Notes under the pieces: generated by a model
Told to the model about the DNA's origin: nothing
Seen by the model: the letters and a program-made list of their open reading frames with translations, nothing else
Databases searched by the model: none
Source: Candidatus Falkowbacteria bacterium
GTDB taxonomy: Bacteria; Patescibacteriota; Patescibacteriia; Patescibacteriales; UBA12075
NCBI GenBank assembly: GCA_003514005.1
Contig: DOSJ01000004.1
Location: 165,533 to 229,532, forward strand
Direction of reading: 5' to 3'
DNA length: 64,000 bases
Program-made: the position numbers and the translations under genes
Part shown: piece after piece, positions 9,737-9,809 of the stretch
Numbering within the stretch: position 1 is the first letter of the stretch
Layout of the letters: every line of letters begins with the position of its first letter

Positions 9737-9809
9737 GGGCCCGTCGTATAATGGATATTACACCGCCTTTGACACGCGAGTAATACGGGTTCGATTCCCG
9801 TCGGGTCCA
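9737..9809 (+). tRNA. tRNA-like gene (73 nt): canonical acceptor, D and T arms, G3:U70 and A73, but only a 3-bp anticodon stem
   Basis: GGGCCCG/CGGGTCC acceptor stem with a G3:T70 wobble. T arm ACGGG-TTCGATT-CCCGT. D loop AATGGATA. Positions 27-31 CCGCC against 39-43 CGCGA pair only at 28-30/40-42. Nominal 34-36 is TGA with C37. No encoded CCA. Confidence 0.6.

Follow-up and report, generated by a model that had tools for sequence, protein, structure and literature searches.

The two-RNA module and its components

The window analysed here is a 64,000-nt stretch of contig DOSJ01000004.1 from a Candidatus Falkowbacteria bacterium. Between pheT and topA it contains a gene for a tRNA-like RNA, preceded by a putative small RNA that is complementary to the 5′ half of the tRNA-like RNA. 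The two-RNA module spans about 9593–9847. Its elements are as follows.

9593–9621 (+): P1, promoter-like site and presumed promoter of the upstream small RNA; sequence TTGACT-17-TATTAT, the −10 being preceded by TG, matching the consensus at 10 of 12 positions
9628–9712 (+): upstream 'anti-tRNA' small RNA of ∼85 nt, its putative ends placed from the promoter and terminator
9631–9639 (+): segment A′ (AGGCGGUGU), exact reverse complement of tRNA-like positions 24–32 (9760–9768)
9653–9659 (+): segment B′ (ACGGGCC), reverse complement of tRNA-like positions 2–8 (9738–9744), the 5′ acceptor strand
9664–9675 (+): segment C′ (UCGCGUGUCAAA), exact reverse complement of tRNA-like positions 32–43 (9768–9779), the anticodon loop and the 3′ strand of its stem
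9673–9711 (+): T1, a 17-bp hairpin shaped like an intrinsic terminator; core GAAUCCUU-GCGA-AAGGAUUC, with an A-tract before and a U-tract after
9688–9716 (+): P2, promoter-like site of the tRNA-like gene; TTGCGA-17-TATAAT, matching the consensus at 10 of 12 positions, with the −35 in the T1 loop
9737–9809 (+): tRNA-like gene with the alanine identity set, anticodon UGA, C37, a 3-bp anticodon stem and no encoded CCA
9813–9847 (+): T2, a 16-bp hairpin that separates the tRNA-like gene from the 3′ end of the convergent topA gene; −21.1 kcal/mol, z = −5.7

The structure of the tRNA-like gene

The tRNA-like gene is 73 nt in length. It is called by ARAGORN at 9737–9810(+) with anticodon tga ('Ser-UGA'), and Rfam family RF00005 covers 9737–9809 from end to end with a score of 45.1 bits (gathering score 29; E = 2e-6 for the whole window). 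Model positions 1–71 are matched, so that the gene has the cloverleaf of the tRNA family. The acceptor stem (GGGCCCG/CGGGUCC) comprises seven base pairs including G3:U70, and is followed by A73. The stem of the D arm (GUAU/UUAC) forms three base pairs together with U13·U22, and its loop, AAUGGAUA, contains G18 and G19. The T arm is ACGGG-UUCGAUU-CCCGU, and the variable loop is the 5-nt sequence GUAAU. The nucleotides that make tertiary contacts are all retained (U8, A14, A15–U48, G18G19, U54U55C56 and A58). No CCA is encoded at the 3′ end, where CAC comes after A73. Folded alone, the RNA has a calculated free energy of −23.5 kcal/mol (z = −0.95), no more favourable than that of shuffled sequence.

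The anticodon arm is irregular. In the Rfam alignment the terminal oppositions 27:43 (C·A) and 31:39 (C·C) are non-standard, leaving C28–G42, G29–C41 and C30–G40 as the only base pairs of the stem. The loop UUUGACA presents the anticodon UGA, followed by C37 and A38. With three base pairs and C37, the arm is not the conventional combination of a 5-bp stem, 7-nt loop and purine 37. In a survey of 1.7 million bacterial tRNAs, 0.2% had an anticodon stem of other than 4 or 5 bp (PMC13092985).

The sequence carries the identity elements of tRNA-Ala (G3:U70, A73, G1:C72 and G2:C71) and lacks the NGC anticodon of that tRNA. Among the matches listed by blastn, the nearest canonical genes are tRNA-Ala(GGC/CGC) of the same short-D-loop type at 78–79% identity, a figure inflated by the pattern with which the sequences were fetched. 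Bacterial tRNA-Ser identity is ruled out by the 5-nt variable loop and by A73 in place of G73; the canonical tRNA-Ser(GGA) of the window (32977–33063) has a long variable arm, G73 and an encoded GCCA. Alternative anticodon registers of UUG (Gln) and GAC (Val, the ARAGORN call for the homologue L027 described below) were rejected on the basis of the 4-bp stem of a second homologue (L169) and the conserved U33, which give a UGA/CGA frame.

A preliminary description made from the window alone had noted G3:U70, A73, the GG of the D arm, the T arm, the weak anticodon arm, the UGA anticodon and a pyrimidine at position 37, all of which are present where it placed them. Alanine-type identity, which it proposed, agrees with the identity elements and the nearest canonical genes. 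Its suggestion that the RNA would decode poorly is reasonable given C37 and the 3-bp stem. It made no mention of the upstream partner RNA, which is complementary to both strands of the anticodon stem and to the whole 5′ half of the tRNA-like RNA. The gene at 9737–9809 is intact and derived from tRNA-Ala; it is not a relic.

The upstream small RNA and transcription signals

The upstream small RNA comprises a 5′ hairpin domain followed by the terminator hairpin, with a calculated free energy of −36 kcal/mol (z = −7.2). It falls into no Rfam family, giving only sub-threshold chance matches such as ctRNA_pND324 (28 bits, threshold 45). The 3′ part is homologous to the corresponding region of L027, with 87% identity over 45 nt. 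T1 is not flagged by a consensus terminator scan because the A- and U-tracts extend the stem; L027 and L169 have similar hairpins, each with a U-tract. P1 has near-consensus equivalents in the same place in both homologues (L027 TTGACA-16-TATATT; L169 TTGACA-16-TATACT). P2 lies ∼20 nt 5′ of the tRNA-like gene, and its counterparts are TTGAAA-17-TATAAT in L027 and TTGAGA-17-TAAAAT in L169. Since there are two promoter-like sites with a terminator-shaped hairpin between them, conserved in three modules, the small RNA and the tRNA-like RNA are likely to be separate transcription units. The only open reading frames (ORFs) within the module are GTG-started frames that overlap the tRNA (9526–9783 and 9636–9818), and on reading the sequence neither has a ribosome-binding site.

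Complementarity between the two RNAs

Overall the small RNA is complementary to positions 2–43 of the tRNA-like RNA, in two blocks of swapped order. The 5′ strand of the anticodon stem (CCGCC) has a perfect GGCGG partner upstream, and the 3′ strand (CGCGA) together with the loop is likewise perfectly partnered. The small RNA does not reach the T arm or the 3′ acceptor strand, which stay free. The 9-mer of A′ and its counterpart in the tRNA-like gene are the only two copies in the window. C′ forms an exact inverted match of 12 nt, where ∼0.3 matches with no more than one mismatch would be expected by chance in the window. RNAcofold predicts 26 intermolecular base pairs (−39.4 kcal/mol), in which 9632–9650 and 9653–9659 pair with tRNA-like positions 2–8, 10–20 and 24–31. 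C′ paired with positions 32–43 gives a further set of 12 predicted pairs with −19.6 kcal/mol, compared with −23.5 kcal/mol for the tRNA-like RNA alone.

The swapped order allows two geometries. In trans, the 5′ end of the small RNA would meet C′ at the junction between positions 31 and 32; in cis, the same blocks would generate an H-type pseudoknot. The second geometry raises the alternative of a single-transcript device, in which a transcript from P1 reads through T1 and its leader folds onto the 5′ half and anticodon arm of the tRNA, masking it or controlling its maturation, with free tRNA-like RNA arising only from P2. The order of A′–B′ and then C′ is exactly that needed for such a pseudoknot; moreover the two units share a strand and are just 25 nt apart, and P2 overlaps T1. 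We nevertheless consider this device rather unlikely, as T1 is shaped like a strong intrinsic terminator in each of the three modules, and in the soil loci described below the complementary RNA is encoded downstream with a promoter of its own, from where it could act only in trans.

A separate stretch of complementarity was observed elsewhere in the window. The mRNA strand of the helicase-nuclease gene at 3429–3440 (UUUGACACGCGC) is identical to tRNA-like positions 32–43 at 11 of 12 nucleotides, where ∼0.3 such matches would be expected. C′ of the small RNA could also pair with this mRNA.

Two divergent modules

Two further modules, on unrelated contigs, share the layout of that in the window. 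L027, from an unclassified bacterium, was found among the matches listed in a genome scan, and L169 in a metagenome scan in which the anticodon arm was left unconstrained. L027 has the same odd anticodon arm built from different bases. Its central pairs are CAU/AUG compared with CGC/GCG in the window, it is mismatched at 27:43 and 31:39, and its loop is GUUGACA. L169 has the loop CUCGACA and a 4-bp anticodon stem. In all three the anticodon is NGA, and the next two nucleotides are C37 and A38. The order P1, A′, B′, C′, terminator, P2, tRNA-like gene and hairpin is common to the three modules, with B′ present in both L027 and L169. The offsets of the window, L027 and L169 respectively are −73, −73 and −75 for C′, and −106, −99 and −105 for A′.

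Twenty-eight tRNA positions are predicted to be paired with the small RNA in each of the three modules. Eleven of these have changed on both sides and four on one side, with none broken. Binding is predicted to be stronger for cognate RNA pairs than for non-cognate pairs. The predicted complementarity is thus conserved by compensatory change.

One part of the small RNA behaves differently. Its UGUCAA(A)CA motif is kept in all three modules, even in L169 where tRNA position 34 differs. This is what might be expected if the roles were reversed, such that the small RNA regulates mRNAs through the conserved UGUCAAACAAAAG stretch and the tRNA-like RNA serves as a sponge, or as a decoy for an anticodon nuclease. 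The near-match at 3429–3440 in the helicase-nuclease mRNA would provide a target. A single near-match in 64 kb is close to the chance expectation (0.3), however, and everything outside the motif covaries with the tRNA-like gene. We give such a reversal little credence.

A wider family in soil bacteria

The genome scan covered one genome per species and used the 3′ half of the tRNA-like gene; the metagenome scan left the anticodon arm free. Each returned at least 120 matches, which constitute a sample. The listed matches of the genome scan are mostly true tRNA-Ala, together with normal Val, Met and Lys tRNAs that have A3:U70. The metagenome scan is dominated by 72-nt tRNA-like sequences from soil with G3:U70 and A73, good covarying anticodon stems and non-alanine anticodons. 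The commonest anticodon among the listed matches is GUC, followed by C37 and A38; GCG, GCC, GCA, GUU and GAU also occur, and across the family C37 and A38 are frequent after the anticodon. These loci are L128–L247 (for example L153 at 3377–3640, L129 and L220) with L044, L052, L055 and L081. Those listed matches of the soil type that are genome records come from Acidobacteria.

At least ∼76 soil contigs have a G3:U70 tRNA-like gene with an anti-anticodon small RNA downstream. Complementary to the anticodon arm over its full length, the segment is located ∼100 nt downstream, preceded by a TTGACx-17-GATAAT promoter-like site and followed by a terminator-like hairpin. A hairpin in the 3′ trailer of the soil tRNA-like RNA has the loop GGACAGG, complementary to the anticodon loop CCUGUCC.

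As a control we took the longest perfectly complementary run between each tRNA and its own flanks, with the following results.

Canonical tRNA-Ala: n = 69; median run 7; ≤9 in 64 of 69
Other tRNAs in the fetched loci: n = 216; median not computed; ≤9 in 207 of 216
G3:U70 tRNA-like genes with non-alanine anticodons: n = 90; median run 13; ≥10 in 79 of 90

In the last set the runs are centred upon the anticodon loop, at positions 30–37. No partner of this kind is seen for canonical tRNAs. Two contigs carry two modules each, and the anticodons differ between the copies.

Two members depart from the usual sequence. The tRNA-like gene of L228 (4747–4819), a chance find on a fetched contig, has a U6–A67 base pair and still has G3:U70 and A73. 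That of L139 (12866–12939), on a metagenome contig of 40% GC, has G3:U70, the anticodon GAU (Ile) and a normal A37; its anticodon arm is matched by a complementary small RNA segment (GGUAUCAGCUG) ∼100 nt downstream. Members of the family can thus do without C37.

The tRNA pattern has no match in 2.9 million viral contigs, the module has no blastn match in phage and plasmid collections, and the partner RNAs fall under no Rfam family, with no Rfam match beside the homologues either. L248, the lone match of a viral contig to the core of the small RNA, has no tRNA beside it and was taken as chance.

Genomic context and codon meaning

The module is surrounded by chromosomal housekeeping genes of a bacterium of the candidate phyla radiation (CPR).

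1417–4395: UvrD/PD-(D/E)XK helicase-nuclease gene
5181–6218: pheS
6580–9045: pheT
9202–9501: ORF of 99 aa
9862–12111 (−): topA, convergent with the module; then dprA, pth and der

The TopA protein of the window is 100% identical to one that NCBI assigns to Candidatus Falkowbacteria bacterium GW2011_GWC2_38_22. The gene order from pheT to topA is kept in relatives with TopA proteins 84% (L002) and ∼70% (L003–L007) identical. Between the two genes of L002–L007 neither a tRNA nor a remnant of one is detected by ARAGORN, Rfam or blastn. The 99-aa ORF at 9202–9501 stays beside pheT in these relatives and is outside the module. Because the relatives keep pheT to topA and the ORF with no tRNA there, it is the 360-nt stretch 9502–9861 that is variable between lineages. 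The module is accessory. The preliminary description had looked to orthologues for one of two outcomes, a normal 5-bp anticodon stem pointing to a local assembly error or free decay across relatives. The comparison gave neither, since the relatives are without any tRNA at this place.

The empty locus in close relatives, the weak anticodon stem and a fold no better than that of shuffled sequence might together suggest a functionless, decaying tRNA pseudogene beside the relic of an inverted duplication, and decay was among the readings first proposed. We regard this as very improbable. The tertiary contacts are intact, the promoter-like sites and flanking hairpins are conserved in two divergent homologues with the same layout, and the complementarity survives two-sided changes in three divergent modules, with at least ∼76 further loci following the same principle. 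Segments of 8–13 nt are also too short to be kept up by gene conversion.

No conserved protein-gene neighbour was found in 110 loci among the matches listed; the largest cluster of neighbours (17 of 110) reflects ordinary synteny. This bears upon a further alternative, that the RNA is an alanine donor for a non-ribosomal reaction, such as those of Fem/MurM-type cell-wall transferases or aminoacyl-lipid synthases, with its availability set by the small RNA. Retention of the identity set while decoding features (C37 and the 3-bp stem) are degraded would suit a donor of this kind. It is improbable, as no transferase or other protein gene is linked to the module in the 110 loci or in the window, and it leaves unexplained both the retained U33 with a 7-nt loop geometry and the differing anticodons on one contig.

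The mismatch of anticodon and identity could in principle also arise if UCA, or GUC or CAA, had been reassigned to alanine, or from an artefact of assembly. The mismatch is the sole point in favour of either, and jointly they can be dismissed for practical purposes. On alignment of TopA with 119 homologues at well-conserved columns, UCA corresponds to Ser in 6 of 6 cases, GUC to Val in 7 of 8 and CAA to Gln in 10 of 12, which refutes reassignment for topA. The place beside topA is present in 24 contigs, and an independent ENA assembly (L001) has an identical tRNA-like gene, which rules out the assembly error that had been envisaged. Since UCA is a serine codon here, an alanine-charged RNA that reads it with UGA would mistranslate and not recode.

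Comparison with known systems

An anti-anticodon small RNA dedicated to a tRNA-like gene was not found described in the full-text literature that was searched, the coverage of which is incomplete. Identity and anticodon disagree in two known kinds of tRNA, the Streptomyces tRNA-ProX family, which is accompanied by its own synthetase, and the allo-tRNAs; unlike the tRNA-like RNA, neither has a reported dedicated antisense RNA. The allo-tRNAs (Mukai et al., PMC5389517) resemble the tRNA-like gene in being chromosomal and patchy, with an anticodon that does not belong to the amino acid of their identity elements. Alanine is inserted in Escherichia coli by some of them, which have G3:U70, and several are believed to play no part in translation (PMC5389517). 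They are defined by an 8/4 or 9/3 acceptor/T geometry and a long variable arm (PMC5389517), whereas the tRNA-like RNA has 7/5 geometry and a short loop and so lies outside the definition.

The RNA–RNA toxin/antitoxin pairs of type VIII include SdsR/RyeA and CreT/CreA, and control by antisense RNA in several segments is exemplified by RNA I/RNA II of the par system of pAD1. The module has in common with them adjacent small RNA genes, the absence of a protein, extensive and specific complementarity in several segments, and a patchy distribution. It differs in that the known toxins are not tRNAs, and in that any toxicity of the module is a conjecture. In type I systems the target encodes a small toxic peptide, and the module here encodes none.

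Anticodon stems are also shortened in the 4-bp tRNA-Trp of Blastocrithidia and in tRNAs of a recent survey (PMC13092985), where a terminal base pair is lost from an otherwise normal tRNA. The tRNA-like RNA differs from these in losing both terminal pairs to leave 3 bp and in having C37, and the explanation we propose is RNA pairing and not relaxed decoding. Transfer-messenger RNA (tmRNA), including its two-piece forms, has G3:U70 and is charged with alanine, and its T arm and acceptor stem resemble those of a tRNA. By contrast the tRNA-like RNA has a full D arm and anticodon arm and no tag frame, and its partner RNA would open the acceptor stem instead of completing it; neither ARAGORN nor Rfam gives a tmRNA call over the gene. 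In Nanoarchaeum, split tRNA halves are joined through complementary leaders, so that there too complementary sequences are encoded beside parts of a tRNA. Here the tRNA-like RNA is complete and the host is bacterial, and no tRNA splicing endonuclease is known from bacteria.

A possible mechanism and function

We suggest, with a probability of roughly 0.55, that the module comprises a tRNA derivative of alanine identity that is unfolded or masked by a dedicated antisense RNA. The open anticodon loop would first touch the single-stranded linker UGUCAAA of the small RNA, and pairing would then extend to the weak anticodon stem, taking in both of its strands, and through the 5′ half of the tRNA-like RNA. 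The cloverleaf would be unfolded, preventing charging by alanyl-tRNA synthetase (AlaRS) and any use on the ribosome, and the resulting duplex would be a likely substrate for RNase III. On this mechanism the weak stem may be tolerated or even favoured because each of its strands is selected for pairing with the small RNA, and not through decay. C37 may keep position 37 free of the bulky modifications of a purine that would block pairing of the loop. Because AlaRS recognises G3:U70 irrespective of the anticodon, free tRNA-like RNA would receive alanine and could read serine UCA codons weakly.

The purpose of such a device is the least certain part. It may be an antisense-gated mistranslating tRNA of the RNA toxin/RNA antitoxin kind, with a stable tRNA and a labile small RNA, and this is the reading that we favour. 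The patchy distribution, lack of a protein partner and varied anticodons fit an antisense-gated mistranslating tRNA. AlaRS ignores the anticodon, and variants of tRNA-Ala with altered anticodons mistranslate and slow growth in yeast (PMC10543346). More specifically, and only tentatively, this could be a toxin/antitoxin or abortive-infection module without a protein component. Its toxin would be the stable alanine-charged tRNA with a non-alanine anticodon, and its antitoxin the labile antisense RNA by which that tRNA is unfolded; the anticodon arm would act as a specificity code against cross-reaction between modules in the same genome. If so, the toxin would insert alanine for serine here, and for Asp, Arg, Gly and Ile in the soil versions.

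Several points weigh against these proposals. In yeast the U34 variants are the least harmful (PMC10543346), and serine to alanine is a mild substitution, which argues against strong toxicity here. With C37 and a 3-bp stem the tRNA-like RNA may not decode at all, in which case the case for toxicity through mistranslation would be weakened. An H-type pseudoknot formed in one read-through transcript would also account for the swapped order of the blocks. The upstream arrangement is known from three modules only (the window, L027 and L169). The pairs that underlie the count of covariation were predicted for each sequence, making that count partly circular; the statistics of exact runs are not circular. 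Finally, both scans were anchored on the acceptor sequence GGGCCCG/CGGGUCCA, so that family-wide G3:U70 is partly imposed and is not an independent result.

Should the pairing be functional, very different lineages (a CPR bacterium and soil bacteria, those with names being Acidobacteria) would keep tRNA-Ala derivatives with foreign anticodons under private antisense RNAs. It would constitute a new way of gating a tRNA, and possibly of gating deliberate mistranslation, as well as a new class of RNA-only module. It would also account for 'broken' tRNA calls that are annotated as tRNA-Ser, tRNA-Val, tRNA-Asp or pseudogenes.

Repeats and other unusual tRNA loci

The heptamer AGAAGTR occurs in tandem in the window, with 19 matches where 0.14 would be expected. 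The sites are as follows.

1975–2022: AGAAGTR repeat
4388–4428 with 4543–4562: AGAAGTR repeat
9494–9534: AGAAGTR repeat
29430–29449: AGAAGTR repeat
32898–32924 with 32948–32967: AGAAGTR repeat

Two of the sites form long inverted repeats. One site is directly 5′ of tRNA-Ser(GGA), and another directly 5′ of the tRNA-like module. A motif that resembles the heptamer, GUGAGAAG, lies beside the tRNA of L016, from a Candidatus Paceibacterota metagenome-assembled genome (MAG). In that locus (∼6200–6630) long perfect inverted repeats lie on either side of a complete tRNA-Ala(UGC). This gene is in turn bracketed by a 5′ and a 3′ fragment of another tRNA-Ala, an arrangement that looks like the insertion of one tRNA gene into another.

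Two other loci have tRNAs of unusual type. On a plasmid of Streptomyces sp. NBC_00989 (L021, 3053–3572) a tRNA with G3:U70 and A73 has the anticodon UAA, corresponding to the rare Leu codon UUA, and adjoins an Ile(UAU) call; it could be a plasmid-borne mistranslating tRNA. In a Thermoguttaceae MAG (L030, 1600–7200) several unusual tRNA calls with irregular arms (Asn, Leu, Leu, Thr and Arg) are clustered close to a tRNA-Ala(GGC).
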